From assembly GCA_024679565.1 (NCBI GenBank), contig JAIBDD010000009.1, positions 1,109 to 65,108 of the forward strand: DNA of 64,000 nt, in the 5' to 3' direction. Under the pieces are notes generated by a model that saw only the letters and a list, made by a program, of their open reading frames with translations, ran no database searches and was not told the DNA's origin. The stretch is from Bacteroidota bacterium. GTDB taxonomy: Bacteria; Bacteroidota; Bacteroidia; NS11-12g; UBA9320. The position numbers and the translations under genes were made by a program. The stretch's first letter is position 1, and the number at the start of each line of letters is the position of its first letter. Below, one piece after another: positions 13,028 through 56,105 of the stretch.

Positions 13028-13348
13028 TTATGCCAATTGTGCTTCTAATTTTCCAGAAATTGTACTCTTAGGTACAGCTCCTACTAATTTATCAACTACT
13101 TCTCCGTTTTTAAATACAAGTAAAGTAGGGATACTTCTAATACCGTACTTCATTGGAGTGTTTCTGTTTTCATCAACATTCATTTTGCCGATTTTAACTT
13201 TACCGTCGTACTCACCAGCCAATTCTTCTACAATGGGTCCAATCATTTTACAAGGACCACACCATACTGCCCAGAAGTCTACTAATACAGGAACGTCAGA
13301 ATTTATCACTTCTGCTTCCCAATTGTCGTCATTAAATTCTAATGCCAT
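13028..13348 (-). CDS. trxA: Thioredoxin
   Basis: 106 aa with WCGPCK active site. Confidence 0.92.
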   Translation of the reverse strand: MALEFNDDNWEAEVINSDVPVLVDFWAVWCGPCKMIGPIVEELAGEYDGKVKIGKMNVDENRNTPMKYGIRSIPTLLVFKNGEVVDKLVGAVPKSTISGKLEAQLA

Positions 13349-13393
13349 TATGTTTTGTGTTTATTTCGTTAACAAATCTTTCCTACAAAGGTA

Positions 13394-34969: not shown

Positions 34970-35953
34970 ATGGCACAGATTCAAGAAATATTTGAAGGCT
35001 TTAAACATCTGAATGTACTCATTCTAGGTGATGTAATGGTTGATGAGTACTACGTAGGAGAGGTAACAAGAATCAGCCCTGAAGCGCCAGTTCCGGTGGT
35101 TTCAGTTAAAAAAAGAGAACGCAGATTAGGAGGAGCGGCTAACGTTGCTTTGAATATTAAAGCACTGGGGGCAAATCCTATTCTTTGTGCAGTACGTGGT
35201 AACGACCCAGAAGGCGAATGGCTTTATAACCGGTTAAGTGAAGTTGCACTCGAAAACGAAGGTATTATCGTTGACCGAAAACGACCAACAACAATTAAGA
35301 CGCGGGTAATTGGTAACAACAAACAACTCTTGCGCGTTGACCAAGAAGATTGTACCGAAGTTGATAGCGATATTGAAAAACATGCGCTTGACTTTGTAAA
35401 GTCTATATTAACCGGAATAGACGTTGTGATTTTCCAAGATTACAACAAAGGCTTCTTAACTAAAAAACTCATCGGGAGCGTCATTAAACTTTGTAACAAA
35501 GAAGACATCCCAACGTTGGTAGATCCAAAAATTGAACACTTTTTTGACTACAAAGGAGTTACGTTGTTTAAACCAAATAAAAAAGAAATCATTGATGGTC
35601 TCCAGTTACAAAGTGAACTTTCTACCAAAACAGAAATAGAGTCGGCAATTCAATTGCTTGCCAAGAAACTAGACATAAAGCAGGTGCTTTTAACCTTGTC
35701 TGAAATGGGTGTCGCCATATTAGAAAACGAACAGGTAGTTTTTATCGACGCACATAAACGCAAGATTGCCGATGTTAGCGGCGCTGGTGACTCTGTGATT
35801 AGCGTAGCGGCTTTAGCTGTTGGCTCTAAAATGCCTTGGACTTCTGTAGCCGGATTAAGCAATTTGGCCGGAGGTTTGGTTTGCGAAAAAATAGGCGTAG
35901 TAGCCATAGACAAAACTAGACTGTTAGACGAAGCCTTGCGTATTGGTCTATAA
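34970..35953 (+). CDS. PfkB-family sugar kinase, RfaE domain-I-like (D-glycero-beta-D-manno-heptose-7-phosphate kinase type)
   Basis: VLILGDVMVDEY...ISPEAPVPVV...LGGAANVA N-terminus typical of HldE/RfaE kinase. C-terminal GAGD anion hole. No adenylyltransferase domain. Confidence 0.7.
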   Translation: MAQIQEIFEGFKHLNVLILGDVMVDEYYVGEVTRISPEAPVPVVSVKKRERRLGGAANVALNIKALGANPILCAVRGNDPEGEWLYNRLSEVALENEGIIVDRKRPTTIKTRVIGNNKQLLRVDQEDCTEVDSDIEKHALDFVKSILTGIDVVIFQDYNKGFLTKKLIGSVIKLCNKEDIPTLVDPKIEHFFDYKGVTLFKPNKKEIIDGLQLQSELSTKTEIESAIQLLAKKLDIKQVLLTLSEMGVAILENEQVVFIDAHKRKIADVSGAGDSVISVAALAVGSKMPWTSVAGLSNLAGGLVCEKIGVVAIDKTRLLDEALRIGL

Positions 35954-36790
35954 AGGGATATACTGAAAGTCTCTAATTATTATTTCGACATCTCTACCCG
36001 TTTCAGGACCTTGACCGCCGTCATTCACTAACCAAAGATTTATTCTTGCATTTGTTTCCGAACCTGGCTTAGGAATCACAATCGGTTCGGAGGTATTTCC
36101 TCCCTCTTGCTTGACGCGTGCGGGCTGAGTATCATCAAAGCTCCATTCGCCAAGCACTGTTCCTTGACCATAGGTATCGCCAGCATATGATATCCAAGTA
36201 ATCTCTTTCTCGGTCCATGTAAACGCGTGCGTAGAAACTCCTTTTAAGCTTCCAAATGGATATTCTGGACGGTGCTTCCGTTCTTCGTTTAACTGCCCGA
36301 AGAATATTGGTTGAACACCATATTGCAATGTTCTCTGTTCTGCTTTGTTATTCCATTTACTTACTTCAATATCCACCTCTGAGTTCCCGTCCGTTTGAAA
36401 CGTGTTGTTGTCCCAGGTAAACAAGCCCAGTACGATGTTGTCGGAGATATTTTCTAAATCCGCGTCAACCGTGAAGATATATGTACCAAAACCCATGTTT
36501 TTATCTGAAACTACCTCCGTGCTGAACCATTTATCGTTTCGTTTTACAATTTTCATATGTAAATACCCATTGTCATCAATGGTGATGTCTCTTTCATTTC
36601 CAGAGAAATAATTTGGCCCCGGTCCCCATTTACCTGTCTCGTGAATTTTTACAGTCCAGTCATGACCAGCGAAGTGGATACTGTCTCCTACCCTCCCAAA
36701 TGTTTCGGTATTGACCGATGGATCTGGAGGAGCAGATTGTTGACATGCCACCAATGAAGTGCTGACAACCAATAGGCCGAATAGTTTCAT
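35948..36790 (-). CDS. Small GH16-like (concanavalin-fold) lipoprotein
   Basis: Lipobox LVACQQ (start moved to MKLFGLL at 36790). EVDIEV resembles the GH16 ExDxE catalytic motif. Confidence 0.5.
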   Translation of the reverse strand: MKLFGLLVVSTSLVACQQSAPPDPSVNTETFGRVGDSIHFAGHDWTVKIHETGKWGPGPNYFSGNERDITIDDNGYLHMKIVKRNDKWFSTEVVSDKNMGFGTYIFTVDADLENISDNIVLGLFTWDNNTFQTDGNSEVDIEVSKWNNKAEQRTLQYGVQPIFFGQLNEERKHRPEYPFGSLKGVSTHAFTWTEKEITWISYAGDTYGQGTVLGEWSFDDTQPARVKQEGGNTSEPIVIPKPGSETNARINLWLVNDGGQGPETGRDVEIIIRDFQYIPL

Positions 36791-36797
36791 TTTAATC

Positions 36798-38027
36798 TTA
36801 TTCACTTTTCTGTTCTTCATATGTTATGTTGCCCCACAATGATGGATTTTTATGAAATCCTTCGATGCCACTGCTATTCCATTTAAGCTGTTTTGTTCTG
36901 TTCTTGCCATTGCCGTCGTTAATGGCCACTTCTAAATGGTAGTTAATGTCAGATTTTAGGTTTCCTCGATTGAAATGCGCATAAGGTATTTTAGCCTCAA
37001 ACTGATAACCCGAATTGGTCTTTTTATAGGCAATGTTACTGTTTGCAATTATTTTATGTGCTTGCCAGTCCCACACCACAGGGTTTTCACCAAGTTTGAT
37101 ACAAACGTGCTGATCGGTCAATAGCAATTGCTTTCTTTTGGGATTTGCATCCTCATTCGTACTAAAGGCAAGTTCTACTCCGTCACCATTCCATACGTCA
37201 TCACCTGACTTATCGTTCAATATAGGGCTTGCATCTTGTATCACTCCACTTACAAATAAGTATTCTGAATTCCCAACGATTGAGATTTTATTACCTTCAA
37301 TTTCAATTGAGTTGCTCCAACTTACTTCGTCGAGTTCGCCGTCAATCACAAATCCAGGATCGTTATCAAAACGTGATGCGTAATGCTTGTTTAAAGTTCC
37401 GGTAAACGGTACTACACGTATTTCATCAAAATATACATCGCCTGCGGCTTCAAACTGAATAATCATTTGTTTGATGTTGGTCTCATCTGCACCAAATTGT
37501 TCCCAACCAAAATCACCAATTGGAAGTGTAACCGTTGCCCAGCTTTCACCTTCGTTATATGCAATGTATTTAGACGCAAAACCAATCCAGGCTTGTTTTC
37601 CGCCATAATCTTCCATGGCCGCAGCCAATGGCAACGACACAATCTTACCATCTTTACTAAAGGCTTTAAACTGAATAGCGGCCTTGTTCATAATCATGCT
37701 AAGGTCTTTTGGAGCCCAGCCATCCCATCCTATTCCCATGCCTATCCAGTCGCAACCACCTTCAATTTTATCCCACTTTAGGTGTACGGCGCTGTTACCC
37801 GCATACAAAGTTTCTGCGCTATTGGCTACCTGAATGCATTTTACATCAGGCGTAAACCAGACTTCAGAATTAAGTTTGTCTTTCAGTACATTTAGGGCAT
37901 AAAAGTTTTCAATATGTGGTGGTTCAGGTTTACTCGAAGCCTCGTCAAAAAGTGCCTTAGGTTTCACCGAAACACATGCAGTCATCAAAACCAGCACTGC
38001 TGAACATACAATAATTTTATTCCACAT
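36798..38027 (-). CDS. Lipoprotein with CBM9-like/DOMON-like carbohydrate-binding C-terminal domain
   Basis: Lipobox LMTAC. C-terminal block with GDGVELAF...EVAINDGNGKNRTKQLKWN typical of family-9-like CBMs. Confidence 0.5.
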   Translation of the reverse strand: MWNKIIVCSAVLVLMTACVSVKPKALFDEASSKPEPPHIENFYALNVLKDKLNSEVWFTPDVKCIQVANSAETLYAGNSAVHLKWDKIEGGCDWIGMGIGWDGWAPKDLSMIMNKAAIQFKAFSKDGKIVSLPLAAAMEDYGGKQAWIGFASKYIAYNEGESWATVTLPIGDFGWEQFGADETNIKQMIIQFEAAGDVYFDEIRVVPFTGTLNKHYASRFDNDPGFVIDGELDEVSWSNSIEIEGNKISIVGNSEYLFVSGVIQDASPILNDKSGDDVWNGDGVELAFSTNEDANPKRKQLLLTDQHVCIKLGENPVVWDWQAHKIIANSNIAYKKTNSGYQFEAKIPYAHFNRGNLKSDINYHLEVAINDGNGKNRTKQLKWNSSGIEGFHKNPSLWGNITYEEQKSE

Positions 38028-38029: not shown

Positions 38030-39058
38030 TTAGAGTTTTAAAGGTCCATCAGTCGTAAATATCATGTAATCCATTAGCGCTTGTGAGTAACCGCTTGACG
38101 GATTCGCCAAAAACAAACAAGAAATCATCTCAAGCTTGTCTGGGTTGTGAAGACCGTTCCCTTTTGGTGCAGTAGGTTGACCGTTTTCCAATGCTACCAT
38201 GTCAGAATATTTGATTGATACAATTTGCCATCCAGCATCTAGTCCTTTGAGCTCAACAGAGTACATATCTTCGTTCGCTTCATTGAAATTACCGTCGCCA
38301 TTCTCGTCTTCCTTAAATTGGAATAAAACCACACCGTTGGTAATTGTATCAGGCCTGTACAAGGCTACATTAAAGTAAGATTCATTTGGGTTACTGCTTA
38401 AGCCAAAACCATTCGGTCCTACAGATTTTGCTGGGAAATCTATAAGGCCTATCAACCAGTCCCAATTCACTGCACCCCCCATGTCAAAGTATCTACTGCC
38501 TTGAGGAACTGTTTTATCACTAGCTAGTTTAAAAGACATATTTGCGCCACTTTGAGCGAATATATTCCAGTCTGGATTGATGGCTTCAAAATCTGCCACT
38601 ACAGTACCATTAGGCACTCGTAAACCTGTGACATTTACATTTGCATTTTGTTTAGAACTATCGGCTTCAGTCCAAAGTTCAACAGTGCATGCTCCAGTGC
38701 CAAATGACGGAAAAATAGTTGTAGACCCATCCCATGTCCCATTCTCTTCGTTAATCAAATTCGATCTTCCTTCAATGATTTTAGTCGCATCAGACGTGCT
38801 ACTTTTTATGGTAATCGTCCATGAGGTAATTGTTGAAAACCGCGCTGAGAAGTATACGGTTTCGTTAGCCGAAAAATCGACATCGTCTTGACTCGTCTTA
38901 AAATCTTCAAGAACCGTAAAATCTCCATATAAGTCAGTCAAATTTGGCCCTTCAGGCTCTGTCACTCTTTCGCAACCTACTGTAAATACCATCGTACCAA
39001 TTACTACAAACGCAGCAAATCGATTCATAATAGATGTTTTATTTAATATCATTTTCAT
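38030..39058 (-). CDS. Surface lipoprotein (SusE/F-like position in the operon)
   Basis: Lipobox FTVGCE, beta-rich, no enzymatic motif. Confidence 0.4.
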   Translation of the reverse strand: MKMILNKTSIMNRFAAFVVIGTMVFTVGCERVTEPEGPNLTDLYGDFTVLEDFKTSQDDVDFSANETVYFSARFSTITSWTITIKSSTSDATKIIEGRSNLINEENGTWDGSTTIFPSFGTGACTVELWTEADSSKQNANVNVTGLRVPNGTVVADFEAINPDWNIFAQSGANMSFKLASDKTVPQGSRYFDMGGAVNWDWLIGLIDFPAKSVGPNGFGLSSNPNESYFNVALYRPDTITNGVVLFQFKEDENGDGNFNEANEDMYSVELKGLDAGWQIVSIKYSDMVALENGQPTAPKGNGLHNPDKLEMISCLFLANPSSGYSQALMDYMIFTTDGPLKL

Positions 39059-39069: not shown

Positions 39070-40782
39070 TTAAAAGTACATACTATAAACGATGCCAAAT
39101 TGACTTAAGTCAAACGCAGGTGTTTCTGAATTTGCAGCATCTTCATAGTTTAATTTCTGCCAAACTATATTCAAGTGATTCTTCTCGTCAAACGTATAGC
39201 GGAGTGCAACCGACATAATAGACTGATTCATTTCAGTATTAAACCGCTCAAAGTCTACAATTTCGCTATAGTCGTTTCTCGTGTTAAGGAACTCCAAGCC
39301 TTTGGCATTAATCATTCGATAGCTACCGATTATCGCGAAATCCTTCGACAAACCAACCTTCACACCCAAATCAACCATAGTAGAAGTAAAATCTACATCC
39401 GCTGTATCCAAGGCTATATCACGTTGTGTGTTTTGATTGGTTATACCCAAACTCACTTCTAATGGATGCTTAAAGGTTGGCATCAACGTATCTAATCTGA
39501 TAAGTGCCGAAAGGTCTATCACGTTAAATGTACGCAGTTCATCGGTTCCTTGGCCAACAACTTCAGACAACATTCGATAGGTTGCGTCAACGTTAATCAA
39601 CTCGTTATTTGTGCTGTGTATCGCATTAACGGAGAGTCCCTTTCTGTTTGGTGTAGCCTTACCATAAGGCTGAACATTATCGTACTGAGGAGCAAATCTT
39701 TGCAGCTCCATAGAAAGCGTTGGTTGGTATAAGGAAGCATCCTGCATCATGTCTAACTGGGTTACAGGGCGAACAACTTGGTCGTTGCCATAGCGGTTAA
39801 ACATTTGCGCTTGCGATTCAAAATTGATTCGCCTACTTTGTGCTCCAACACTTCTGAATTGAGGTCCCACATTAATATAATTCACAGACAGGCTAGGAAG
39901 TTTGTCTCCTCGCGTAATTTTCAAGTCAAGATCGTAGAAGTAATCGCGAAGACCCTTCGCATTTGGGTCGTTAAGTGTATACATCTCTGAAATACCACTT
40001 TCTGATGTAAAACTCAGATCGTATGCATTCACCTTTTGATGTATCTCTGTTGTTCCGGTAATTACAGGATTGTGAAAGGCCATCTCTGAACGCGAAGTTC
40101 CTAGTACATCCATCATGTCAACATAATTTAGGCCAACGGCAAGCTTGTCACTCTGCAGCAATGTTGCGTTACCTCCAAAGAAAATACGTTCGCTAGATTG
40201 CCCAAAATCCGTAGGTCTATTCCGAAACATAAATGAGTTCACTTGAAGTTCCTTTACCGCTTTAGAAAACTCTAAGGTAAAGTCAACCGCGGCACCTTGC
40301 TGGCGCCAAGTATTGTCGTCGGTATAGAATAAGTCGTAGTGTACCATATCACGGTAAATGTTAAGCACCTCTGATTGATGACTACTCAATTCTTCTTGGT
40401 TATTAAAAAAGGTGTATGGGCTTAATTTGTAATTGATATCCCCTAATTGATATCGCACTGCATCATTCACTAAGCCTTTCAAATACATTTGACGCATGTC
40501 GAAAGTGACACCCGAACCCCAAAATCCACCAAAATCATTTCGAACCCTAACCATGGCATGAACAAACGTGTTTGCATTCGGTCTTGCATTTAAGGCTACG
40601 TCAACCAAAGTATTCCCAGAGTTTAAGTTAGTCGGAGTAATGGTATCACCGGCTGAATTCAATTTATTTTGTTGGAATACGCTACGTGCGGCACCTGAAG
40701 CCCACACTTTCTTTCCTTGTCCTAGTGTAATTGTTGAGCAAAGCGTCAACGCGATTACGACTATATATTTCTTCTGAATCAT
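39070..40782 (-). CDS. Uncharacterised outer-membrane beta-barrel protein (570 aa)
   Basis: Signal peptide, amphipathic beta-strand periodicity, C-terminal ...GIVYSMYF with terminal Phe. Not SusC (no plug/TonB box) and not SusD. Confidence 0.5.
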   Translation of the reverse strand: MIQKKYIVVIALTLCSTITLGQGKKVWASGAARSVFQQNKLNSAGDTITPTNLNSGNTLVDVALNARPNANTFVHAMVRVRNDFGGFWGSGVTFDMRQMYLKGLVNDAVRYQLGDINYKLSPYTFFNNQEELSSHQSEVLNIYRDMVHYDLFYTDDNTWRQQGAAVDFTLEFSKAVKELQVNSFMFRNRPTDFGQSSERIFFGGNATLLQSDKLAVGLNYVDMMDVLGTSRSEMAFHNPVITGTTEIHQKVNAYDLSFTSESGISEMYTLNDPNAKGLRDYFYDLDLKITRGDKLPSLSVNYINVGPQFRSVGAQSRRINFESQAQMFNRYGNDQVVRPVTQLDMMQDASLYQPTLSMELQRFAPQYDNVQPYGKATPNRKGLSVNAIHSTNNELINVDATYRMLSEVVGQGTDELRTFNVIDLSALIRLDTLMPTFKHPLEVSLGITNQNTQRDIALDTADVDFTSTMVDLGVKVGLSKDFAIIGSYRMINAKGLEFLNTRNDYSEIVDFERFNTEMNQSIMSVALRYTFDEKNHLNIVWQKLNYEDAANSETPAFDLSQFGIVYSMYF

Positions 40783-42777
40783 TTAAAATGTTAATTTAAG
40801 TTCTACAACTGTCTCAGTACCGTTGAACGCATCGCGTTCAAAATTGCGATCTTCATAATGGAACCATCTGTGACGTAAAAATAAAGCGGTGTTTTTAGAC
40901 AAATCATAGTCTATTCCTAGGCCTGCTCCCCAGCCTCTTTGATTTCGTGGGGCATTTGTAATCGCATCCAAATCCGTTTGATAATTGGCTACAATACTTT
41001 CGTAACCCAAGTACGTTGCGATAACGCATCGATCATTATATTCATAGTACGTTTCTAACTCATTGCTATAATGTCTTAGGTAGGCATCTTCCGAAAAAAC
41101 GGTAATAGGTGAAATGAAATCCTGAACCGAACTATATCTATTTAACAAGAATGCGTAGAATCGTTTTAGGCCAATTTTGCCAGAATATTTGGCCTGGACT
41201 TCCATTACGTTAAACTTCTTAGCCACAAAAGTGTCGGACAGTTCAACGATTTCATATACATCTCGGAAAATCACATTATATCTACCATAAGCACCAACAT
41301 TTGTCGGGAAATTCCATCTCCAAAAGCGAGATCGCGTTAGTTGATTAACAGGGTGTCCGTAGCTTATTTGATTACTAAGTCCTTTCAATTCTGAAGATAT
41401 GCCATTGGCAACTGAAAGCTTGAGTTTTTTCATCGGGAATTCAGCATTGATGTTGACCCCTTGTCGATTGTTGGTAAACTGACCAATTGCTGTGAGTGCA
41501 CTCGCAAAAGGAGCCAATACTTGACTTGACCCTACCGTACCTGCGGCTAGCGTATTGTTACTAGCCTCACGGATTGCGGAGTTAAAGAATATAGCATTGT
41601 TGTTTATAACGTTAGGGCTAACTCTAAAGAAATGTAATTCTAAAGGCACCTTACTGATTTTTTCGGTGAAATTCAACTTAAGGTTTATGGCTTCACCAAA
41701 TGGAAGACTATGCACCGGACTGTAATACTGACCTGCACCGATTTCTGATTTCAGAATAATTCCTTTCGATACATTCGCTTGAAACTGTATGGTTGATATA
41801 TCAAATCCAATGCTGTTCGTTCCAAGACTATCGCTATAGGTTTGATTATGGAACGTGTTAAACGCAACAAATCCAAAAGGCGTTTCCTTTTTTAACTGCC
41901 CCCCGTAAGACAAATTAGGAATGGTAAGAAAACCACCATTTAGTTCTGTTTTACCGTACAAGGCTTTTAAACTCAAATTACCTGGAAGATTTGAAGCTTC
42001 CACAATAGTTCCAGTAAATGCCCGCTCTCCCCAACGTGTATCTTGGTTAATATTTCCTTGATTATAGAAGCTACTATATCTGTCAGACACATTGCCTGTA
42101 ACAGGATCCCAAGGATTCCGTTCAAACAACATAAAACGATTGTAACCTGTAAAGCCTGCCAAAGTAAAATCACTCAACGATACCCAATGAATACCACCAG
42201 TTTTTACACCGAACGTGCCTATATCTGTATCAAAGTTTCCATATAGATTGATACCAAGAAGCAAACCTAAGTTTGTGCCAAAACGCGTACCTGTTAGTGG
42301 ACTATATATCGTTGGCAAATTGGTTTGACTTACTTGCCCTTGTCCATAGGTTTGGTTGATTTTACCATCCAAAAATTGAAAAGCATATAAATCGAAACCC
42401 CAAGCAGTTTTTGCCGAAGGTCTTCCAGAAAAATTTAATGTGAGATTTGGCAATTGACTATCGTCACCAACAAAAACACTTTTTTGAAGCGCTGTGTCGT
42501 TGTTTACTTCGTTTAAGATCAACGCGTCCTTATGTCGCGTATACGTGCTAAAAAATCGATACGTCCCACCAATTTTGAAAGTGTATAGTGCGTCTGCGGG
42601 CTTCTTAGGATAAACTCCAACCTTGGGTTTTATCGTAGAATCGAACCGGGTGTTCCAGTGGGCTTGCCAACGCTTAAACGAATCTAACTCCTGATTATCA
42701 GGAGGAGCCTGACCCGAACTGGATTGCCATCCAATCAGACAACAGATGATTGTAACTATTCTTTTTGAATTCATCAT
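40783..42777 (-). CDS. Uncharacterised outer-membrane beta-barrel protein (664 aa)
   Basis: Signal peptide, C-terminal ...VVELKLTF. Adjacent to the 570-aa barrel with 0-bp spacing, and overlaps the upstream symporter by 4 bp. Confidence 0.5.
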   Translation of the reverse strand: MMNSKRIVTIICCLIGWQSSSGQAPPDNQELDSFKRWQAHWNTRFDSTIKPKVGVYPKKPADALYTFKIGGTYRFFSTYTRHKDALILNEVNNDTALQKSVFVGDDSQLPNLTLNFSGRPSAKTAWGFDLYAFQFLDGKINQTYGQGQVSQTNLPTIYSPLTGTRFGTNLGLLLGINLYGNFDTDIGTFGVKTGGIHWVSLSDFTLAGFTGYNRFMLFERNPWDPVTGNVSDRYSSFYNQGNINQDTRWGERAFTGTIVEASNLPGNLSLKALYGKTELNGGFLTIPNLSYGGQLKKETPFGFVAFNTFHNQTYSDSLGTNSIGFDISTIQFQANVSKGIILKSEIGAGQYYSPVHSLPFGEAINLKLNFTEKISKVPLELHFFRVSPNVINNNAIFFNSAIREASNNTLAAGTVGSSQVLAPFASALTAIGQFTNNRQGVNINAEFPMKKLKLSVANGISSELKGLSNQISYGHPVNQLTRSRFWRWNFPTNVGAYGRYNVIFRDVYEIVELSDTFVAKKFNVMEVQAKYSGKIGLKRFYAFLLNRYSSVQDFISPITVFSEDAYLRHYSNELETYYEYNDRCVIATYLGYESIVANYQTDLDAITNAPRNQRGWGAGLGIDYDLSKNTALFLRHRWFHYEDRNFERDAFNGTETVVELKLTF

Positions 42778-44411
42778 TTAAATAAATACCATAAAATGAA
42801 AACTGAGATTATTAATAAAAGTGACAGAATAATATTGACACTTGATTTTTGAATTGTAATGGCGCCTTTAGACCATGTTATGTCTGCGAGACGGGATTCT
42901 GAAAGTGCGTCTTTCTCTTTCGAGAACACATACAGCAACGCCACACAAACCAGAAAAAGGAATAAAGCAAAGTGTAAAAAGTTTATTTGCGTGAAGGCAT
43001 ATAAGGGCCCGCTTAAATCGTCTTGAACTAGTTCTAACCCAAGTCTAACTAATCCTAAAACTGCACCACTTAACAAGGATATTTTAGCAGCTTGAGGCGT
43101 TATTTTCTTACTCAAAATACCAATTAAGAAAACAGCAGCAATTGGTGGTGATATATATGCTTGAATACTTTGAAGCACCTTAAATAAGCCTCCTTTAATA
43201 TCTTCCATAAAAGGAATCCACGCCATACCCAATAAAATGAGAACGACGGTAGCAATCTGACCTACGTACACAAGTTGTTTTTTGGTGGCCTCAGGTTTGT
43301 ATTGACGGTAAATGTCCATTGTAAACAACGTAGAACATGAATTAAAAACAGAAGACAATGAACTCATGAGAGCGGCCAGTAAGCCAGCAATAACAAGGCC
43401 TTTAAAACCCGCCGGCAAAACTGTTAGGCTAAGCAGCGGTAATGCGGCATCGTAGTTTGTGGTGCCGTCTGCTTTCAATGGAAACGTAATGAGCGCATTG
43501 TCGCCAACCGAAAGGGCTAGTGCGATAACACCCGGGATTACAAACAAAAACAGCGGTAAAAGCTTCAAGAAACCACCAAAAATGGTTCCTTTCCTAGCGT
43601 GATCAATATTTTTTGCAGCCAATACACGTTGAACGATAAATTGGTCCGTACACCAATACCATACTCCTAAAATTGGAGCGCCAAAGACTATACCTGTCCA
43701 AGGATAGTCTGGATGTTGCATGTTTTTCCATAGGCTAAGCGAACCTTCAGGAACGTTTTGCACTACACCTTCCCATCCATTTAAAGATTTTAAACCAAAA
43801 TAGGTTAGGGCAATAGAGCCACCTATAAGCACTATCATTTGCAGAAAGTCGGTATACACAACCACTTTTAACCCACCTATTAGCGTATACACACCGGTGA
43901 ATACAACAATTAACAAAGCACCAGTCCAGAAGTTGATTCCGAGTAATGTGGTAAATACGATACCTCCTGCGGCAATGGTTATAGATATTTTGGTTAAGAC
44001 ATACGCCACTATGGAAATCCAGCTTAGATAATTTCTGGCCCAAGAACTGTACCTTCTTTCTAAAAATTCAGGCATAGTAAATACACCACTTTTCATATAA
44101 AAAGGAACAAAGAACCAACCCAATACCAGCAGCATAAGTGCAGCGAGTATTTCGAACTGACCTGCGGCAAACTCTCCTTTTGCCCCGGCACCAGCCAATC
44201 CAATTAAATGTTCAGAGCCAATATTTGATGCAAACAGTGAAGCGCCAATCACCCACCAACCTAAATTTCTTCCACCCAAGAAGTACGACTCTGGACTTCT
44301 TTTGCGTTTAGAACATTTCTTCTTCAAAAAGAAAAACAAAGCAATACCAAATACGCATAAGAAATATACTCCTATAACGACTAAATCCAGCGATGCTAAG
44401 TGCTCAAACAT
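42774..44411 (-). CDS. Sodium:solute symporter family (SSF) sugar transporter
   Basis: 545 aa, ~14 TM helices, typical SGLT/SSF glycine-rich core. Confidence 0.85.
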   Translation of the reverse strand: MFEHLASLDLVVIGVYFLCVFGIALFFFLKKKCSKRKRSPESYFLGGRNLGWWVIGASLFASNIGSEHLIGLAGAGAKGEFAAGQFEILAALMLLVLGWFFVPFYMKSGVFTMPEFLERRYSSWARNYLSWISIVAYVLTKISITIAAGGIVFTTLLGINFWTGALLIVVFTGVYTLIGGLKVVVYTDFLQMIVLIGGSIALTYFGLKSLNGWEGVVQNVPEGSLSLWKNMQHPDYPWTGIVFGAPILGVWYWCTDQFIVQRVLAAKNIDHARKGTIFGGFLKLLPLFLFVIPGVIALALSVGDNALITFPLKADGTTNYDAALPLLSLTVLPAGFKGLVIAGLLAALMSSLSSVFNSCSTLFTMDIYRQYKPEATKKQLVYVGQIATVVLILLGMAWIPFMEDIKGGLFKVLQSIQAYISPPIAAVFLIGILSKKITPQAAKISLLSGAVLGLVRLGLELVQDDLSGPLYAFTQINFLHFALFLFLVCVALLYVFSKEKDALSESRLADITWSKGAITIQKSSVNIILSLLLIISVFILWYLFK

Positions 44412-44415: not shown

Positions 44416-45759
44416 CTAATATTCGAAATTCAGTTTACGTTTTTTCAACTTAATGGTAGTCGTCGCGTTAGGATCAGGTTTAACATAAAATGGAATATTG
44501 AAATACCCCATTTGTCCTTTACGATCGTAGGCAAATACAAAAACCCGGTACGCGCCTTCTTTTTGGGGAGCGACAAACTCCATTTTGTTTTTTTGCTTTG
44601 ATTTAATCAAACCTGGAATGCTCGGTGGTGCGCTTTCGACATCTCCACCTGCCTTTACGTCTGTACTTTCAGATATGACCTGCCAATCGATTTTAAGCTT
44701 GTCCCCATCTGGGTCGTTGAAGTTTGCTATTACCGTATAACGCCTACCCGATTCAACAATATTATCTGGTATAGGTTTACTATCGTAGAGTAACGCAAAA
44801 TCAACCACTTTGGGTGATTCATTTTTAGGTTTTTCGCCTCGCCAATCAATATGTAATCGATCGACCGATTCGGTACTTTCACCCGCAGCGCTAAACATAC
44901 CATACCAAGTTGCTGTAGTCTCCTGCTTTTGCCCCCATAAAAATACATAGGAACCAACACACTTTAAACTATCTGCATTGATGTAGTTATTTCGTTCTTC
45001 ATAGCTATCGGCTTTTTCACTAGACGTTTGTTCGATTGGGGCGCCCCACTTTGTTTTTGCCGTTTCCCAATGTCCATTAGGGCCCCACTCTGCAATTAGG
45101 TATGCTCCTGGCCAACCAAATCTATGCATGTCATCTACGGCTTTTTTCAAATCGCCATAGGTATTGACTCCATAGATATCAAGATCAGGTACGTTTTGTA
45201 ATATTAATGCTGTTTCGGTAGAATCATATCCGGCAGTTACCGTTGTTGTTGGATGATTTGGGTCGATACGGTGCACCATGGCACAGATATCCTGAACCGC
45301 ATTCCAAACCTTCGTATTACTGTAAAATAAATCTACTTCATTACCAACACCCCACATAAGCAAAGCTGGATGGTCTTTGAACTCTTTTACTTTTCTAGTA
45401 AAATACTCCAACTGTTTGCGTACAGCAGTTGTGTCGTTGTAGTCGAAACCATGTCGTTCGTGCTGAACCCACAAACCCATCATTACTGTCAAACCACGTT
45501 CGTGTGCCGCATCTAAAAATTTCTTGGCATTTTCTAAACTCCAAGTACGAATGGAATTGCTACCAATTTCAACCGCCTTGTCGAGATAGACTTGCCCCCC
45601 TACTCCTTTAATGTAATAAGGTTTTCCATCACGATAGAGTTCCCAGTCTCCATTGACTTTTTTTACTTCTACTTTTACAGCTTGCGCATTTGAATTGACG
45701 TATAACACAAACGCCAACACACTCATTAGTATAGCTTTATAGTTCAAAACTGATTTCAT
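44416..45759 (-). CDS. Secreted clan GH-A (TIM-barrel) glycoside hydrolase with C-terminal beta-sandwich. Possibly GH158-like endo-beta-1,3-glucanase
   Basis: Signal peptide from M28 (start 45759). LLMWGVGNEVD block with the clan GH-A acid/base Glu context. IAEWGPNGHWE as nucleophile-region candidate. ~100-aa Ig-like C-terminal domain. The family call is a guess from memory. Confidence 0.5.
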   Translation of the reverse strand: MKSVLNYKAILMSVLAFVLYVNSNAQAVKVEVKKVNGDWELYRDGKPYYIKGVGGQVYLDKAVEIGSNSIRTWSLENAKKFLDAAHERGLTVMMGLWVQHERHGFDYNDTTAVRKQLEYFTRKVKEFKDHPALLMWGVGNEVDLFYSNTKVWNAVQDICAMVHRIDPNHPTTTVTAGYDSTETALILQNVPDLDIYGVNTYGDLKKAVDDMHRFGWPGAYLIAEWGPNGHWETAKTKWGAPIEQTSSEKADSYEERNNYINADSLKCVGSYVFLWGQKQETTATWYGMFSAAGESTESVDRLHIDWRGEKPKNESPKVVDFALLYDSKPIPDNIVESGRRYTVIANFNDPDGDKLKIDWQVISESTDVKAGGDVESAPPSIPGLIKSKQKNKMEFVAPQKEGAYRVFVFAYDRKGQMGYFNIPFYVKPDPNATTTIKLKKRKLNFEY

Positions 45760-46468
45760 TTTTCTTTCTTGCATCGTAACGTTCTTTGTCAAAATTGAAT
45801 AGTTTGGCTGGTCGGTGTGCGACATTTGATTCAACCTCATTTAAAGGCGTAACCAAATCCATACTTAAGATCTTCTTTCTGAAGTTTGGTTTGTCAAATC
45901 TCATATTTAGGAGTGCCTCGTATACACCTTGCAATTCAAGCAAAGTGAATTTTTCGGGTAAAAGTTCAAATCCGATAGGCTCGGTACGCACTTTTTTCCG
46001 AAGATTGGCTAATGCCTTTTGAAGGATTTCCTCGTGGTCAAAACCCAAGGGGGGAAGTTCATTGATATCGAACCATTTCACCTCTTTTGCCCAAGTGGAC
46101 GCCACAGGCTTATGATTATCAGTTCGAACAAGTGAGTAATAACCTACTGTTATAACTCGGCCAACAGGGTGTCTATCAACACGACCGAAGGTGTGAAATT
46201 GTTCAAAGTATATATTCTCGAGTCCAGTAAGATGTTGTAAAATTCTATCGGCTGAGGAGTCTAAATCTTCTTCGGGATACACCAAATCACCAGGTATGGC
46301 CCAATTGTCTAAATACGGTTCTGCCCCCCTTTGGATTAATAGAACGCGTAATGATTTGTCTTTATAACCGAATATGACACAATCCGTTGACATACCAAAA
46401 TGAAGGAAATCTGAAAAAGGTAAATTGTTTTCGGAGAGGAAATATATATCTGGGTTTTTCTTGTGCAT
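45737..46468 (-). CDS. NUDIX-domain transcriptional regulator (NrtR-like: NUDIX plus C-terminal winged helix)
   Basis: NUDIX fold signature region (LLIQRGAEPYLDNWAIPGDLVYPEEDLDSSADRILQ), then a ~100-aa C-terminal domain. Start moved to ATG 46468 (MHKKNPD); the track TTG start is 46489. Confidence 0.6.
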   Translation of the reverse strand: MHKKNPDIYFLSENNLPFSDFLHFGMSTDCVIFGYKDKSLRVLLIQRGAEPYLDNWAIPGDLVYPEEDLDSSADRILQHLTGLENIYFEQFHTFGRVDRHPVGRVITVGYYSLVRTDNHKPVASTWAKEVKWFDINELPPLGFDHEEILQKALANLRKKVRTEPIGFELLPEKFTLLELQGVYEALLNMRFDKPNFRKKILSMDLVTPLNEVESNVAHRPAKLFNFDKERYDARKKNEISFEL

Positions 46469-46489
46469 TTTCAATAAGGATATGCACAA
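46461..46489. promoter_or_regulatory. Perfect 8-bp inverted repeat TTGTGCAT-N13-ATGCACAA overlapping the NUDIX regulator start. Candidate operator in the divergent control region
   Basis: 46461-46468 TTGTGCAT and 46482-46489 ATGCACAA are exact reverse complements. The regulator's ATG (rc of 46466-46468) lies within the left half. Confidence 0.5.
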
Positions 46490-46599: not shown

Positions 46600-48165
46600 A
46601 TGAAAACAAAAAATCCAGTTATTATGATGATCGCCATGATTGTAGCCCTAGGGGGGTTACTCATGGGATTCGACGCCTCGGTAATATCAGGGGTTATAAA
46701 ATTTATTGAGCCTGAGTTTGGTTTAACGAAACTGCAATTGGGATGGTCGGTAGCTTCATTAACGGTTACAGCAACCCTTGCCATGCTTGTGGCCGGGCCA
46801 TTAAGTGACAAAATTGGTCGAAGAACGGTGTTGCGATACGCGGCAATATTATATGCCGTGTCTGCATTTGCATCGGCTTTTGCACCCACGTATACATTTT
46901 TGGTAATTGCACGAATGATTGGTGGATTCGGCGTAGGGGCCTCATTAATTTTGGCACCAATGTACATCGCAGAAATGGCTCCACCTGAAATAAGAGGCCG
47001 GTTGGTATCGTTCAACCAGCTTAACATTGTAATAGGTATTTCACTGGCTTTCTTTACCAACTACCTCATTCTTCAACTCGGTAAAAGTGACGCTTCATGG
47101 GTTGCTTCTCTTAAAATTAATGAGAACAATTGGCGGTGGATGCTTGGTTTAGAAACCGTTCCTGCGATTTTATATTTCTCCGGTTTGTTTTTCGTACCTA
47201 ACAGTCCTAGGTGGCTTATTCTAAAAGGTCGATATGACGAGGCCAAAAAGGTTCTTAGTAAATTCTCAGGACCTGAAGAATCAGAAAAGACGGTACAGGA
47301 AATTCAAGACCACATCGAACAAGATAAAAACAAAGCCAAGGTTAGTATTGGAGAGCTCTTTAAACCGGCAATGAGATTCGTATTGGTCATTGGTGTTGTG
47401 GTAGCCGTATTACAACAAATCACGGGTATTAACTCCGTATTTTTCTACGCACCAATGATTTTTGAACAGTCGGGTATTGGCACTGACGCGTCATTTATTC
47501 AAGCCATTTTAGTAGGGATAACCAACCTCTTGTTTACCATTTTAGCTTTAGCCTTGATAGATAGACTTGGACGTAAGCCACTACTCAGTATTGGAGTAGC
47601 CGGAATGACGATATGTCTGTTCCTGTTGTCTTACGGGTTTAATTCGGCATCCTATACCTTACCTGCAGATTCTATTTCAGGATTGGTAGACAATGTTGAC
47701 TTATCGGGTTTGGAAGCTATCGCTGGTAAAACGTATGAATCTGACATTGCGTTTAATGAAGCCTTGTCGTCGTCTTTAGAAGTAGACGTATTAGCCGCAC
47801 ATAAATCGGAAATTATTAAAGCAGCGATTCAAATGAATCCTAAATTAATTTTAGTTGGCATTTTAGGGTTTGTAGCTTCTTTCGCCATTTCGATTGGGCC
47901 AGTGATGTGGGTCCTGTTTTCAGAACTGTTTCCAAATCGAATCAGAGGAATTGCCATATCATTTGTAGGCGTAATCAACTCTGCCATAAGCTTTGTGGTT
48001 CAATGGGTATTCCCATGGCAATTAGAAGTACTGGGTAACGCAGGAACATTTTTTATCTATGGCGTATTTGCCCTTATTGGCCTCATATTTATTATACGTG
48101 TAATTCCAGAAACCAAAGGGAAGTCATTAGAGGAGTTGGAAGAAGAACTTGTTAAAACCGCTTAA
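46600..48165 (+). CDS. MFS sugar porter family transporter
   Basis: GRR/GRK loops, PNSPRWL and PETKG sugar-porter signatures, 12 TM helices with a large central loop. Confidence 0.9.
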   Translation: MKTKNPVIMMIAMIVALGGLLMGFDASVISGVIKFIEPEFGLTKLQLGWSVASLTVTATLAMLVAGPLSDKIGRRTVLRYAAILYAVSAFASAFAPTYTFLVIARMIGGFGVGASLILAPMYIAEMAPPEIRGRLVSFNQLNIVIGISLAFFTNYLILQLGKSDASWVASLKINENNWRWMLGLETVPAILYFSGLFFVPNSPRWLILKGRYDEAKKVLSKFSGPEESEKTVQEIQDHIEQDKNKAKVSIGELFKPAMRFVLVIGVVVAVLQQITGINSVFFYAPMIFEQSGIGTDASFIQAILVGITNLLFTILALALIDRLGRKPLLSIGVAGMTICLFLLSYGFNSASYTLPADSISGLVDNVDLSGLEAIAGKTYESDIAFNEALSSSLEVDVLAAHKSEIIKAAIQMNPKLILVGILGFVASFAISIGPVMWVLFSELFPNRIRGIAISFVGVINSAISFVVQWVFPWQLEVLGNAGTFFIYGVFALIGLIFIIRVIPETKGKSLEELEEELVKTA

Positions 48166-48169
48166 ATCT

Positions 48170-49432
48170 ATGCATCAGAAGTTACTATTTTTGAAGCTGA
48201 ACGTCTTGCTGAGCGGTAAGTTCACCGCCCTTGTATTGATGTGTTCTCTCGTTGGTTGTAAACAGGAAGCCAATGAAGTTGAGACTGATCTTATCCAAGT
48301 CGAAAACTATACAACAGGTACCGACCATGTTCAAAAGACCGAAACGTATGTTCGTATTCCTGCTGATAACCACATTACCATCAACGTTGACGTTCCTGCT
48401 ACTGGGCGTTATCAAGTGGAAGTTTTTGGATCGTCCGATAATGGTACAATCTGGATTGAAGACTATATCAACAATACAGATGACCGGACTTACAACATCA
48501 CGGGAGACATCAAATTTGCACACAACAATTCCTTTCATTCTTCAAGCATGTTTGGCTCACCTCTATCGGAAGGAAGTCACCCATTTAAAATCCATGCTAA
48601 AAACGATACCGTAAATATTGACTGGATAAAACTTACCCCGATACTTGTGCATGATTCGACCTACGAAGTGTTGGAACAAAAAATGCAGGGTAGTCAATGG
48701 GACTTGGTATGGTCAGACGAGTTTGATGTAAACGGCTTACCTGACACGTCAAAATGGTCTTACAACATCGGAAACTGGGGATGGGGCAACAACGAGTTAC
48801 AGTATTACACCGCCTTTGACGAGAAAACAGCGCGCGTAGAAGACGGCAATCTTATTATTCAAGCACATCAAGACAAGAGTGATTCTACTTGGACCTCAGC
48901 AAGATTGACAACCCAAGGTAAATTCGGCTTCAAATATGGTAAGATAGAATTTAGGGCTAAGGTACCGCACGATCGTGGAACATGGGCTGCTGGTTGGCTG
49001 CTTGGATCAAATTACAAGGACGAAATATCTTGGCCATACTGCGGAGAAATAGATGTTCTTGAATGCGTTGGATATGAAATTAACGACACCACATTCGCTG
49101 GATTAAACCATGCTACCTGCCATACAAGAAAGTATTATTTCAAACAGGGCAATCAAATAGGAAGTGATACGACGTTAACCCACATGACAGATTCCTTTCA
49201 TACTTATGCAGTTGAATGGCATCCAGATGTTATCTATGGGTTGGTGGATGGAAAGCGTTATTACACCTATGACAAAAATGCCGACGACTTAGAATGGCCC
49301 TTTAACAAACCACAAGACATTATACTCAACCTTGCCATTGGAGGCGGATGGGGCGGAGCAAAAGGACTTGACCCTAATATGGACGCTCCTCAATACATTT
49401 TAGACTATGTGCGGGTGTACGACCTCAAATAA
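48170..49432 (+). CDS. GH16 family beta-glucanase (laminarinase-like) lipoprotein with N-terminal accessory domain
   Basis: Lipobox LVGCKQ. Catalytic motif EIDVLE (ExDxxE) at CGEIDVLECVG. ~170-aa N-terminal non-catalytic beta domain. Start moved to ATG 48170. Confidence 0.85.
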   Translation: MHQKLLFLKLNVLLSGKFTALVLMCSLVGCKQEANEVETDLIQVENYTTGTDHVQKTETYVRIPADNHITINVDVPATGRYQVEVFGSSDNGTIWIEDYINNTDDRTYNITGDIKFAHNNSFHSSSMFGSPLSEGSHPFKIHAKNDTVNIDWIKLTPILVHDSTYEVLEQKMQGSQWDLVWSDEFDVNGLPDTSKWSYNIGNWGWGNNELQYYTAFDEKTARVEDGNLIIQAHQDKSDSTWTSARLTTQGKFGFKYGKIEFRAKVPHDRGTWAAGWLLGSNYKDEISWPYCGEIDVLECVGYEINDTTFAGLNHATCHTRKYYFKQGNQIGSDTTLTHMTDSFHTYAVEWHPDVIYGLVDGKRYYTYDKNADDLEWPFNKPQDIILNLAIGGGWGGAKGLDPNMDAPQYILDYVRVYDLK

Positions 49433-49440: not shown

Positions 49441-50940
49441 ATGACAAAGCTTACACCGTATGCGTTATGTTTTATGACCTTATTTGTTTTGGTCGGTTGC
49501 GGCCAAAAAACTATAGAAGAATTGAATGTTAGCATTTTTCAAACCAGTGCTGCTGGTGATCATTTAAAACAAATTGAACTACCCACCACAGAAGCTGCTG
49601 TTTCTGGTGAGATCGTTATCAATACAAATGAAACATTCCAAACTGTTACCGGTTTTGGTGGAGCGTTTACAGAATCTAGTGCCACTTTGCTCAACCAATT
49701 AAGCGCTGATAAACGCAACCAAATTATGGAGGCGTATTTTTCAGCAGACGGGGCACAATACAGTTTGACTCGAACGCATATGAATAGTTGCGACTTCTCT
49801 GTTGGTCATTACAGTTATGCTCCAGTTGAAGGAGATACGGCTCTTGAATCGTTTAGCATTGCAGAAGATACGGCTGATATAATTCCGATGATAAAACAAG
49901 CACAAGCATTGTCGTCAGAAGGGTTTAAGATTGTTGCCTCTCCGTGGACGGCACCCATCTGGATGAAAGACAACAAAACGTGGAACGGCGGAAAGTTAGA
50001 AAAAAAATACTACGGCACTTGGGCAAAATTCTTTTCGAAATATGCACAAGCATATAGCGATGAAGGAATTAATATTTGGGCATTTACAGTAGAAAATGAA
50101 CCCTTGGGTAATGATGCCAATTGGGAAAGCATGCACTACACCCCTCAAGAAACTGCGGATTTTGTAAAACACCATCTAGGACCACAGTTGCAACAAGATA
50201 ACATTGACGCCAAAATATTGGTGTACGACCAAAACCGCGGAAAAGAATTAGATGAATGGGCATTGGCATTACTAACCGACTCGGCTTTAGCACCTTACAT
50301 TTACGGCACAGCGGTACATTGGTATACAAGTACGATTGATTGGTATCCGCAATCACTAACGTCCACACATAACCTTGCTCCCACCAAACATATTATACAT
50401 ACTGAAGGTTGTATTGATGCTGAAGTACCTCACTGGAAAGATGATGCCTGGTATTGGAGTAAAGAAGCAACAGACTGGGGTTGGGATTGGGCCAAAGAAG
50501 AAGACAAAAAAGACCACCCGAAATATGTGCCATGTTATAGATACGCCAGAGATATCATTGGCTGTATGAATAACTGGGTGGAAGGTTGGATAGATTGGAA
50601 CATGGTTCTTGATAAAAATGGAGGCCCTAACTTAGCTAACAATTGGTGTATAGCACCAGTCATTGTTGACACTGATAGTAACGAAGTTTATATCACACCG
50701 TTGTACTATGTTCTCAGTCATTTTAGTAAATTTATTCGACCTGATGCTATAAGAACAGGCATAGACACAAAACATGATGCGCTGATGGCAACCGCTGTAA
50801 AGAATAAAGATGGATCTAACGTAGTAATCGTTTTTAACGAATCTGATAAACCGATACACTACAAGCTAACCATTGATAATAAAGAAAAAACAATATTGAT
50901 TGACCAACAAGCGATACAAACTATCGTTGTAAGTCAGTAA
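49441..50940 (+). CDS. GH30 family glycoside hydrolase (beta-1,6-glucanase / glucosylceramidase-like) lipoprotein
   Basis: Lipobox LVGCGQ and TGFGGAFTESSA, the hallmark GH30 N-terminal motif. Confidence 0.8.
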   Translation: MTKLTPYALCFMTLFVLVGCGQKTIEELNVSIFQTSAAGDHLKQIELPTTEAAVSGEIVINTNETFQTVTGFGGAFTESSATLLNQLSADKRNQIMEAYFSADGAQYSLTRTHMNSCDFSVGHYSYAPVEGDTALESFSIAEDTADIIPMIKQAQALSSEGFKIVASPWTAPIWMKDNKTWNGGKLEKKYYGTWAKFFSKYAQAYSDEGINIWAFTVENEPLGNDANWESMHYTPQETADFVKHHLGPQLQQDNIDAKILVYDQNRGKELDEWALALLTDSALAPYIYGTAVHWYTSTIDWYPQSLTSTHNLAPTKHIIHTEGCIDAEVPHWKDDAWYWSKEATDWGWDWAKEEDKKDHPKYVPCYRYARDIIGCMNNWVEGWIDWNMVLDKNGGPNLANNWCIAPVIVDTDSNEVYITPLYYVLSHFSKFIRPDAIRTGIDTKHDALMATAVKNKDGSNVVIVFNESDKPIHYKLTIDNKEKTILIDQQAIQTIVVSQ

Positions 50941-53900: not shown

Positions 53901-54394
53901 ATGAAATACGCGCTGGCATTGGGGTTAACAAATCACCTCAATTGTACGGTGCTTTCCCTACAGACGCCTATTCGCACACGCCAGGAAATGCTGGAGCACA
54001 ACAACCTGGCATGACTGGGCAAGTTAAAGAGGACTTAATCAATCGATGGGCTGAATTTGGTTTGGTGATTCGAAGTGGTACAATTTGTTTTGAACCTCTG
54101 CTTCTTAGAAGCGTCGAATTCTTTAAAGAATCGAGTACGTTTGATTTTTACGACCTCAACGACAAACCAGCAAGCATTGAATTGCCCGCAGACGCTTTAG
54201 CCTTTACCTATTGCCAAATCCCTGTAGTTTATCAAAATAGCGATGCAGAAAGCATTACAGTAACGTTTAATGATAATCGAACGGAAGTAATCCTTGGTCA
54301 CGAAATGCCTACCGATCTATCAAACAAGGTGTTTTCTCGTAAAGGAGATATCATCTCCATTCATTTCAACTGCATCAATCTACTAGTGAAGTAG
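50978..54394 (+). CDS. Large cytoplasmic (signal-less) conserved protein, 1138 aa. Candidate GH149/GH161-type beta-1,3-glucan (laminarioligosaccharide) phosphorylase
   Basis: No signal peptide. Size and position, last gene of the MFS-GH16-GH30 operon, match the bacterial GH149 context described for laminarin loci. No catalytic motif was verified. Confidence 0.4.
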   Translation: MSNQESTGEYVKIDGEQFYKISNSDSIRPFFMTIVSPSDHWLFIASNGGITAGRKNAGSSLFPYYTDDKIIDLADITGSKTIVRFDDKNKRFWEPFSERNVGENIARNLYKNRIGNKVIFEEIHHTHGLSFQYMWTFSEKFGFVKRASIKNTGDTPMPFEILDGLQNVLPYGVDTDLQASRSTLVDAYKKCELDNASGMGIYSLSAMIVDRAEPSESLSCTTIWSTGLNREKTLLSSTQLKSFRLGNTIKHEHDVRAEKGAYFLSAKLALAANEETTWFTICEVNQNHADAINLKAQIVNESSLVHELTEDIANTTTDLKKLVAKADGLQKTNDDLSTGRHFSNVLFNIMRGGIFDDQYCIYRSDYEPHIASMNKNVYENNIAFFQNLDDELELKSFIQLVSDQGDIDLLRLTNEYLPLFFSRRHGDPSRPWNYFSIETQNNEGEKIRNYEGNWRDIFQNWEGLALTFPDYTFGFISKFLNASTIDGYNPYRVFKEGLDWEVADEHDPWSYIGYWGDHQIIYLTKLLEICEAHFPNLLSDMLTTELFVYANVPYRIKEFDAIVSNPRDTIVYDYAAEQKIAEKVKEIGADGKLALHRDNTPVRASMTEKLMVALCTKLYNFIPDAGIWLNTQRPEWNDANNALVGNGVSMVTLYYLRRFIAFTQQIIDADKQPTTVINRPVARLIQSLKSTYEENIPTLHKGFTDSERYDFTASIGEIGEYFRRQAYAGFRAEKETINTADISELLAVALQYIDATIAKNKRDDALYHAYNVVDFKNKSVGIDHLYEMLEGQVAVLSAGTIEPQEASDILDALKASKMFREDQYSYLLYPDRQLPFFIDKNTIPKTAAANIALFQQLQSDSNTSLILLDDCGDYHFNGDINNANDVIDVLRNLSAEGYSDLVNENRQEILTVFEDLFDHKSFTGRSGTFYGYEGLGSIYWHMVSKLLLAVQENIISAYHKGASDQILGNLVEHYYEIRAGIGVNKSPQLYGAFPTDAYSHTPGNAGAQQPGMTGQVKEDLINRWAEFGLVIRSGTICFEPLLLRSVEFFKESSTFDFYDLNDKPASIELPADALAFTYCQIPVVYQNSDAESITVTFNDNRTEVILGHEMPTDLSNKVFSRKGDIISIHFNCINLLVK

Positions 54395-55843: not shown

Positions 55844-56105
55844 AATTCTTTTTTTTATTTTCTTTTTTGTCTTTAAAAATTGATCACAACACATGCAATC
55901 GATTATTTGATGGTACGAATTAAATAAAACTTAAGGTAAATATTACTATAACTTATGGTATTTATTACAATAAACTTATAATTGAAGTATAGAAATAAGC
56001 GAATGAATTGGCTTGAATGATTGTTATTCATACTTTTGAAGCCTGCAAACGCGGAAAAAGTTTAAGCATTATTTGTTGTATCAATAGAGCAGTGAGATAA
56101 GATTT

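Follow-up and report, generated by a model that had tools for sequence, protein, structure and literature searches.

Two adjacent genes on the minus strand of a 64-kb stretch of Bacteroidota DNA (contig JAIBDD010000009.1 of assembly GCA_024679565.1, positions 1,109 to 65,108; hereafter the window) encode proteins which, judged by sequence homology, are distant relatives, in a laminarin-locus version, of the Cytophaga hutchinsonii proteins CHU_1276 and CHU_1277. We refer to the 570-aa protein of the CHU_1277 family (39070–40782) as OMP-A and to the 664-aa protein of the CHU_1276 family (40783–42777) as OMP-B. We think it fairly probable that this pair, together with the CHU_1278-like lipoprotein encoded beside it, forms the invariant outer-membrane core of a polysaccharide utilisation locus (PUL) of the SusC/SusD-independent or ‘atypical’ kind, which serves glycan uptake and probably works independently of TonB. 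In Bacteroidota it is by the susC/susD gene pair that PULs are recognised and delimited, and clusters that lack the pair are filed as ‘carbohydrate-active enzyme (CAZyme) clusters’, for which no way across the outer membrane is known. The chu_1276–1280 cluster has until now been regarded as peculiar to three cellulose specialists (PMC12016534); the window puts an outer-membrane core of this type into a locus for laminarin, which is among the most abundant marine glycans.

The predicted barrels and their Cytophaga relatives

The OMP-B stop codon and the OMP-A start codon are separated by 0 bp, and 4 bp of the OMP-B gene are shared with the symporter gene upstream, which is exactly the arrangement of 570- and 664-aa reading frames that an earlier note on this DNA, made from the sequence alone, had described. 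Both N-termini are signal peptidase I (SPase-I)-type signal peptides ending in ...G/Q or ...AQ, a type common to the homologues of both barrels, where the ...AQ ending is also found, and the C-termini of the pair read ...SMYF and ...KLTF. AlphaFold2 models computed from 60-sequence alignments, with strands counted from the DSSP strings, are almost all-beta for both proteins. The OMP-A model (pLDDT 88.8, pTM 0.83) has 22 strands, the first of which starts at residue 26, 3–4 residues past the signal peptide, and two long non-strand segments (residues 119–158 and 306–379, ~114 residues together) that are conserved loops, the second holding the motifs VGPxFRSxGAQ and PYGxATPNRKG. The OMP-B model (pLDDT 75, pTM 0.72) has ~24–26 strands and long conserved loops that total ~160 residues; several long loops are of low confidence, and a 45-residue N-terminal extension (residues 22–66) is poorly predicted and less conserved than any other part of the family (column conservation averages 0.29). 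No match to the Pfam families Plug (PF07715) or TonB_dep_Rec (PF00593) was found at E ≤ 1 in either window barrel or in 120 family members. From signal peptide, barrel model and C-terminal Phe, both proteins are predicted to be large, plug-less beta-barrels of the outer membrane. The earlier note had called them barrels with signal peptides and aromatic C-termini, without a plug or TonB box, embedded in a glycan operon and tightly coupled to its enzyme and transporter genes, and had looked to structure prediction for a strand count; on all of these points its description holds.

It had also stated that the proteins fitted no family its author recognised. Searches of OMP-A, OMP-B and the 120 aligned members against Pfam and NCBIfam returned only sub-threshold matches to the generic OMP_b-brl, DUF3575 and Porin_4 families, none to Porin, LamB, OprB, OprD or Alginate_exp, and the barrel profiles matched no PDB sequences. 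Foldseek searches of the PDB retrieved generic barrels only for both models (TM-scores 0.26–0.46), among them FimD/PapC ushers, MOMP, chitoporin, OprD/Occ, LamB, AlgE, MtrB and the barrels of TonB-dependent transporters (TBDTs), so the comparison with AlgE, FadL, OprB and other sugar porins that the note had proposed yields these weak structural likenesses and no Pfam match. The statement is therefore right for Pfam, NCBIfam and PDB sequences, but it fails against CHU_1276 and CHU_1277, and the impression of ‘no family’ arises because curated libraries have gaps, not because the proteins are true orphans. The further suggestion of a previously unseen family falls with it, since the window proteins are full-length homologues of proteins on which genetic work has been done and which have been placed in an ‘atypical PUL’ for cellulose (PMC12016534).

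For the comparison we used a contig on which CHU_1279 is encoded with its exact sequence (ABG58551.1) and on which consecutive genes specify proteins of 743, 606, 380, 375 and 589 (GH9) aa. OMP-B aligns with CHU_1276 at 27.7% identity over 557 aa (BLASTP E 2e-53; E 2.5e-80 with A2, the OMP-B family profile) and OMP-A with CHU_1277 at 31% identity over the full length (BLASTP E 1.5e-87; E 2.5e-123 with A1, the OMP-A family profile), whilst the 342-aa lipoprotein shares 25% identity with CHU_1278 (BLASTP E 1.8e-14). OMP-B is also 28% identical (E 3e-57) to P0304, which clusters at 90% identity with a protein that NCBI calls ‘CHU_1276 family cellulose-binding protein’; the NCBI label for the window's own OMP-A and OMP-B is still hypothetical. 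The OMP-B loop motifs FERNPWDP, GNINQDTRWGE and IGQxTNNRQG, and both of the OMP-A loop motifs given above, are kept in the Cytophaga proteins, and because they are retained there these motifs would belong to the common machinery and not to substrate choice. The resemblance extends to the gene cluster: on both sides, genes for two barrels and then a lipoprotein, homologous and in the same order, precede those for a CBM (carbohydrate-binding module)-like lipoprotein and a glycoside hydrolase (GH); signal peptides and a C-terminal Phe are common features, and SusC/SusD are absent from both.

In C. hutchinsonii the cluster is cellulose-induced and has been proposed as an ‘atypical PUL’, and the organism's SusC/SusD homologues are dispensable (PMC12016534). 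That paper describes CHU_1276 as an outer-membrane protein needed for cellulose use, whose mutant does poorly on low glucose, and a second study reports CHU_1277 as needed for cellulose use and for the assimilation of cello-oligosaccharides (PMC5553014). CHU_1278 and CHU_1279 are like surface glycan-binding proteins (SGBPs), CHU_1279 being SGBP-B-like (PMC12016534), and CHU_1280 is a GH9 endoglucanase. The window differs from this cluster in its predicted substrate, a beta-1,3-glucan enzyme set (GH158, GH16, GH30, GH149) taking the place of cellulose and GH9; in its fourth gene, which is CBM9-like and unrelated to CHU_1279; in the addition of a GH16-like lipoprotein and an inner-membrane symporter to the operon; in a regulator of Nudix/AraR type, not an ECF (extracytoplasmic function) sigma factor; and in its hosts, which are planktonic marine and freshwater Flavobacteriales. 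The 409-aa CBM9-like lipoprotein showed no similarity to the 375-aa CHU_1279 orthologue, and what follows the CHU_1278-like lipoprotein varies among loci, so that this fourth position appears to be a substrate-specific part and not a core feature. On sequence grounds, then, the window barrels are best described as a new member of the CHU_1276/CHU_1277 atypical-PUL core, one in which the substrate has shifted.

Both families are large. Homologues of OMP-A and OMP-B fall into 676 and 439 clusters at 90% identity, respectively, all unnamed or ‘hypothetical’, and these numbers argue that the two are real genes. The OMP-B family profile, run against 1.84 billion representative proteins, recovered 323 clusters at E ≤ 1e-3, and many of the divergent relatives are full-length (590–836 aa) with signal peptides and ...LK(I/V)FF termini. 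The OMP-A profile matches one 361-aa protein (P0368; E 4.7e-23) that also aligns with the C-terminal portion of the OMP-B profile; this protein is the product of a gene fusion or else of a gene call that reads through a 1-nt junction. In the alignments of both barrel families an invariant ...N-R-(K/Q)-G motif ends the longest conserved loop, directly before a strand, and an hhalign comparison of the two families is centred on this motif (P 0.0028, probability 10.8%; reversed controls 0.6–0.7). OMP-A and OMP-B may thus be ancient, distant paralogues.

Linkage, spread and reuse of the barrel pair

With one genome taken per species, an OMP-B relative was encoded in at least 365 species-level genomes, mostly metagenome-assembled genomes of marine and freshwater Flavobacteriales (Salibacteraceae, Schleiferiaceae, Cryomorphaceae and Crocinitomicaceae), the cultured Phaeocystidibacter luteus LMG 25704, with the full locus (L001/L037), being among the carriers, as is MAG B_MB356, which is 95% identical (L002). 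Eighty-one loci were fetched, and OMP-A follows OMP-B in 77 of them, the other four being cut by contig ends. Gene order across these loci is almost invariant: regulator, GH158, (symporter), OMP-B, OMP-A, 342-aa lipoprotein, CBM9-like lipoprotein, (GH3 insert), GH16-like lipoprotein. GH158 adjoins OMP-B in 78/81 loci, the symporter being an optional insert between the two (29/81); the regulator is present in 69/81 loci and the CBM9-like lipoprotein in 64/81. The gene for the 342-aa lipoprotein starts no more than 25 bp after OMP-A in 68 of 70 loci. The junction from OMP-B to OMP-A is likewise ≤25 bp in 77 of 80 loci, with a 1-nt stop/start overlap in 58, and this short or overlapping junction argues for coupled, equimolar production of the two barrels. 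Neither SusC, SusD nor any TonB-dependent receptor was found among the open reading frames (ORFs) scanned across the window, and SusC/SusD were likewise missing from the 12 annotated contexts.

The pair is reused with other enzyme sets. In each of eleven further, divergent loci a gene resembling OMP-B precedes one resembling OMP-A (A1 profile E 1e-109 to 1e-135), usually with a 342-aa-like lipoprotein next after the pair. Three of these (L082–L084) set the pair beside a GH5 mannosidase, a ROK kinase and mannose-6-phosphate isomerase; L085 sets it beside GH3, L087 beside GH9 and a 7TMR-DISM sensor, L091 beside two GH10, GH43, xylulokinase and xylose isomerase (XylA), and L092 beside GH67, GH10 and GH3. 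In L090 (ENA ctg148395, 9001–14513), from DNA of 75.5% GC, the pair occurs with LacI, a 1389-aa GH3, GH16 and a protein with a Type IX secretion system (T9SS) tail; as this is a GC-rich lineage, the cassette extends well beyond low-GC Flavobacteriales. Three OMP-B relatives (P0277, P0286 and P0292, from loci L082, L083 and L088) have a CBM_4_9 domain at the N-terminus, right behind the signal peptide, a fusion which ties the barrel family directly to glycans; L092 instead encodes a separate 601-aa CBM_4_9 protein, its gene lying just upstream of that for the barrel.

The recurrence of the barrel pair at SusC/SusD-free loci for laminarin, mannan, xylan and cellulose, in hundreds of species, is a pattern undescribed in the literature we searched. 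The cluster is reported in three cellulolytic species only, a 2025 paper having sought it in just two related cellulolytic species (PMC12016534), and we found neither a paper that carries it over to other glycans or lineages nor, in the literature on laminarin, GH158, Cryomorphaceae and Phaeocystidibacter, any description of these outer-membrane proteins. The pair could therefore serve as a new marker for finding SusCD-free loci, and it is a candidate explanation for glycan uptake by SusCD-poor planktonic Flavobacteriales (Salibacteraceae, Schleiferiaceae, Cryomorphaceae). The cultured P. luteus would offer a soluble-substrate system in which to work out the long-puzzling Cytophaga apparatus.

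A proposed route of uptake and its rivals

We propose that the surface lipoproteins of the window locus (342-aa CBM-like, 409-aa CBM9-like and GH16-like) would capture and nick beta-1,3-glucan, and that OMP-A and OMP-B, made in equal amounts and probably acting as a complex, would give the resulting gluco-oligosaccharides passage through the outer membrane independently of TonB energy, with the long loops conserved throughout the family narrowing or gating pores whose width would be far too great without them. Periplasmic GH158, GH16 and GH30 (and GH3 in sister loci) would then shorten the chains, the sodium:solute symporter (SSS) and major facilitator superfamily (MFS) transporters would import the products, and a cytoplasmic GH149 phosphorylase would complete the breakdown, transporters and GH149 together acting as a sink; the Nudix/AraR-type regulator would control the locus. 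The earlier note's idea of a glycan-specific porin or translocon fits both the Cytophaga literature and the genomic context. A broader claim is that the barrel pair and the CHU_1278-like lipoprotein constitute, in parallel with SusC/SusD, a second apparatus by which Bacteroidota and related lineages import glycans in general. A plug-less and probably TonB-independent two-barrel complex would then be reused for laminarin, mannan and xylan as well as cellulose and other beta-glucans, in no fewer than several hundred species, above all planktonic Flavobacteriales, for whose ‘CAZyme clusters without SusCD’ no entry route at the outer membrane has been known. This claim seems to us evenly poised between right and wrong; if it is true, PUL prediction keyed to susC/susD would miss all such loci.

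The proposed system resembles a SusC/SusD PUL in its general plan, with surface binding proteins and an endo-enzyme, a barrel with lipoproteins, periplasmic exo-enzymes, an inner-membrane transporter and its own regulator, as well as in the reuse of a conserved signature gene pair with different enzyme sets and in the 22 predicted strands of OMP-A. It differs in having two barrels instead of one, without plug, TonB box, N-terminal extension domain or a SusD-like tetratricopeptide repeat (TPR) protein, and in showing no detectable sequence similarity. Sugar porins (LamB/ScrY, ChiP, OprB, OprD/Occ) and AlgE are also plug-less barrels encoded with sugar-catabolic genes, but these classical channels have 16–18 strands (14–18 when FadL is included) and 350–450 residues, against at least 22 strands and 570–664 residues here. 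FimD/PapC ushers gave the best Foldseek E-values for OMP-A (1.8e-9), yet at TM-scores of 0.34–0.40 and a root-mean-square deviation of 16–20 Å. Ushers are large barrels in which an internal insertion, the usher plug domain, plugs the pore; no usher Pfam domains, chaperone or pilin genes occur here, and the likeness is one of barrel size alone.

Several points weigh against an uptake core of this kind. Identity to the Cytophaga proteins is just 25–31%, and function could have drifted; the OMP-B model is only moderate in confidence (pLDDT 75), its most conserved loops being its least confident parts; the channel role is, for every member of the family, one that we infer; and a CBM at the N-terminus of a barrel would normally lie on the periplasmic side, a location hard to square with simple surface capture. 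In addition, the chu_1276 and chu_1277 mutants lose cell-associated beta-glucosidase activity, according to PMC5553014, and this loss fits a scaffold as well as it fits a channel.

That last observation leads to the chief rival, to which we give a minor but real share of the probability: the barrels would be outer-membrane platforms that export, anchor or organise surface lipoproteins and enzymes, in the manner of LptD/LptE or MtrB/MtrC, with sugars entering by other porins. The two barrels are always accompanied by two or three lipoproteins, and conserved loops common to loci for different glycans are what protein–protein contacts would be expected to produce. The link of CHU_1277 to cello-oligosaccharide assimilation speaks for a channel instead, as does the lack of any other candidate outer-membrane importer in these loci, and the scaffold and channel roles are not mutually exclusive. 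Much less likely is that the barrels are energised transporters, whether divergent SusC/TonB-dependent proteins or coupled in another way, with the conserved internal loops serving as a plug of their own that a partner in the inner membrane would move. Such a reading would account for the 22 strands of OMP-A, the number found in TBDTs, for the near-plug size of its two long loops taken together, and for the TBDT barrels among the Foldseek matches, which the published CHU_1276 model also retrieved (PMC12016534); it sits badly with the failure of the plug and receptor families to match any of the 120 members, with a first OMP-A strand that directly follows the signal peptide, with the unconserved N-terminal extension of OMP-B and with the absence of TonB/ExbBD genes from the loci. 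That the pair is instead an orphan, an entirely new porin family without characterised relatives, as the empty Pfam, NCBIfam and PDB sequence searches and the ‘hypothetical’ NCBI label might suggest, is refuted by a clear homology over the full length to CHU_1276, CHU_1277 and CHU_1278, with gene order conserved as well, and by the ‘CHU_1276 family’ name that NCBI already uses for close relatives of CHU_1276, and we regard it as wholly improbable.

The predicted beta-1,3-glucan locus and its neighbourhood

From its predicted GH158, GH149, GH16 and GH30 enzymes (with GH3 in sister loci) the window locus is of beta-1,3-glucan (laminarin) type. Its minus-strand operon runs in the order regulator, GH158, symporter, OMP-B, OMP-A, 342-aa lipoprotein, 409-aa CBM9-like lipoprotein and 290-aa GH16-like lipoprotein, and the barrel genes are tightly coupled to their neighbours. 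The regulator (45737–46489) is of the Nudix-family NrtR/AraR type (Pfam NrtR_WHD E 3e-25, AraR_C E 1e-11, NUDIX E 7e-11). The GH158 endo-beta-1,3-glucanase (44416–45840) matches the PDB entries 9oro, ‘GH158(Pro)’ (E 6.4e-92), and 6pal (E 1.2e-71); N-termini compared over more than 20 homologous loci give it an SPase-I signal and a soluble form, and its true start is probably Met28, near 45759. The SSS symporter of the inner membrane (42774–44411) matches Pfam SSF (E 7e-84) and TIGR00813 (E 6e-109).

The three lipoproteins encoded downstream of the barrels, also on the minus strand, gave nothing useful when compared with PDB sequences. The 342-aa, CHU_1278-like protein (38030–39058) has a lipobox Cys followed by an acidic run (C-E/D-R-D/N-T-E/D) in more than 20 homologues, and one homologue has a weak CBM_11 match. 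A Cys with such an acidic run resembles the surface-export signal of Bacteroidota lipoproteins, and because acidic residues follow the conserved Cys this protein is probably surface-exposed; it is a probable glycan-binding protein. The 409-aa protein (36798–38027) matches Pfam CBM9_1 (E 8.8e-12) and, weakly, SGBP_B_XBD (E 0.0014) and CBM30 (E 0.0025); it sits at the CHU_1279 position and is probably a substrate-specific binding protein. The 290-aa GH16-like protein (35948–36820) matches Pfam GH16 only below the gathering score (E 8.7e-4), with the sequence EVDIE at an ExDxE catalytic-type motif that is kept in 49 of 50 homologues, and has C-x-Q-S-D-P after its lipobox (C-E-Q-S-D-P in homologous loci); it is a probable surface endo-beta-glucanase. 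A pfkB-family sugar kinase gene on the plus strand (34970–35953) converges on this end of the operon and overlaps the 3' end of the GH16-like gene by 6 bp.

The divergent, plus-strand half of the locus opens with an MFS sugar transporter (46600–48165; Pfam Sugar_tr E 5e-117), followed by a GH16 glucanase (48149–49432; Pfam Glyco_hydro_16 E 4e-20), a GH30 glycosidase (49441–50940; Pfam Glyco_hydro_30 E 1.6e-75) and a cytoplasmic GH149 beta-1,3-oligosaccharide phosphorylase (50978–54394), which over residues 7–1130 matches PDB 6hq6 (Pro_7066) with 1258.7 bits (E 0). This GH149 is very close to Pro_7066, which is metagenome-derived, and the GH158 is close to 9oro, and the crystallised 6hq6 and 9oro enzymes may come from the same SusCD-less locus type. 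A protein with a T9SS C-terminal sorting domain is encoded on the minus strand at 54494–55894. In 11 loci (L001, 2106–4139, for example) such a protein is encoded upstream of the regulator, that of P. luteus showing faint CBM48-like matches; T9SS-tailed proteins flank mannan-type loci too, and the protein may be a secreted accessory component. At the far end of the window, an 891-aa ORF on the minus strand (517–3192) has two D-Ala-D-Ala ligase (Ddl) N-terminal domains and several C-terminal domain matches, and looks like a tandem Ddl fusion of about twice the usual length.

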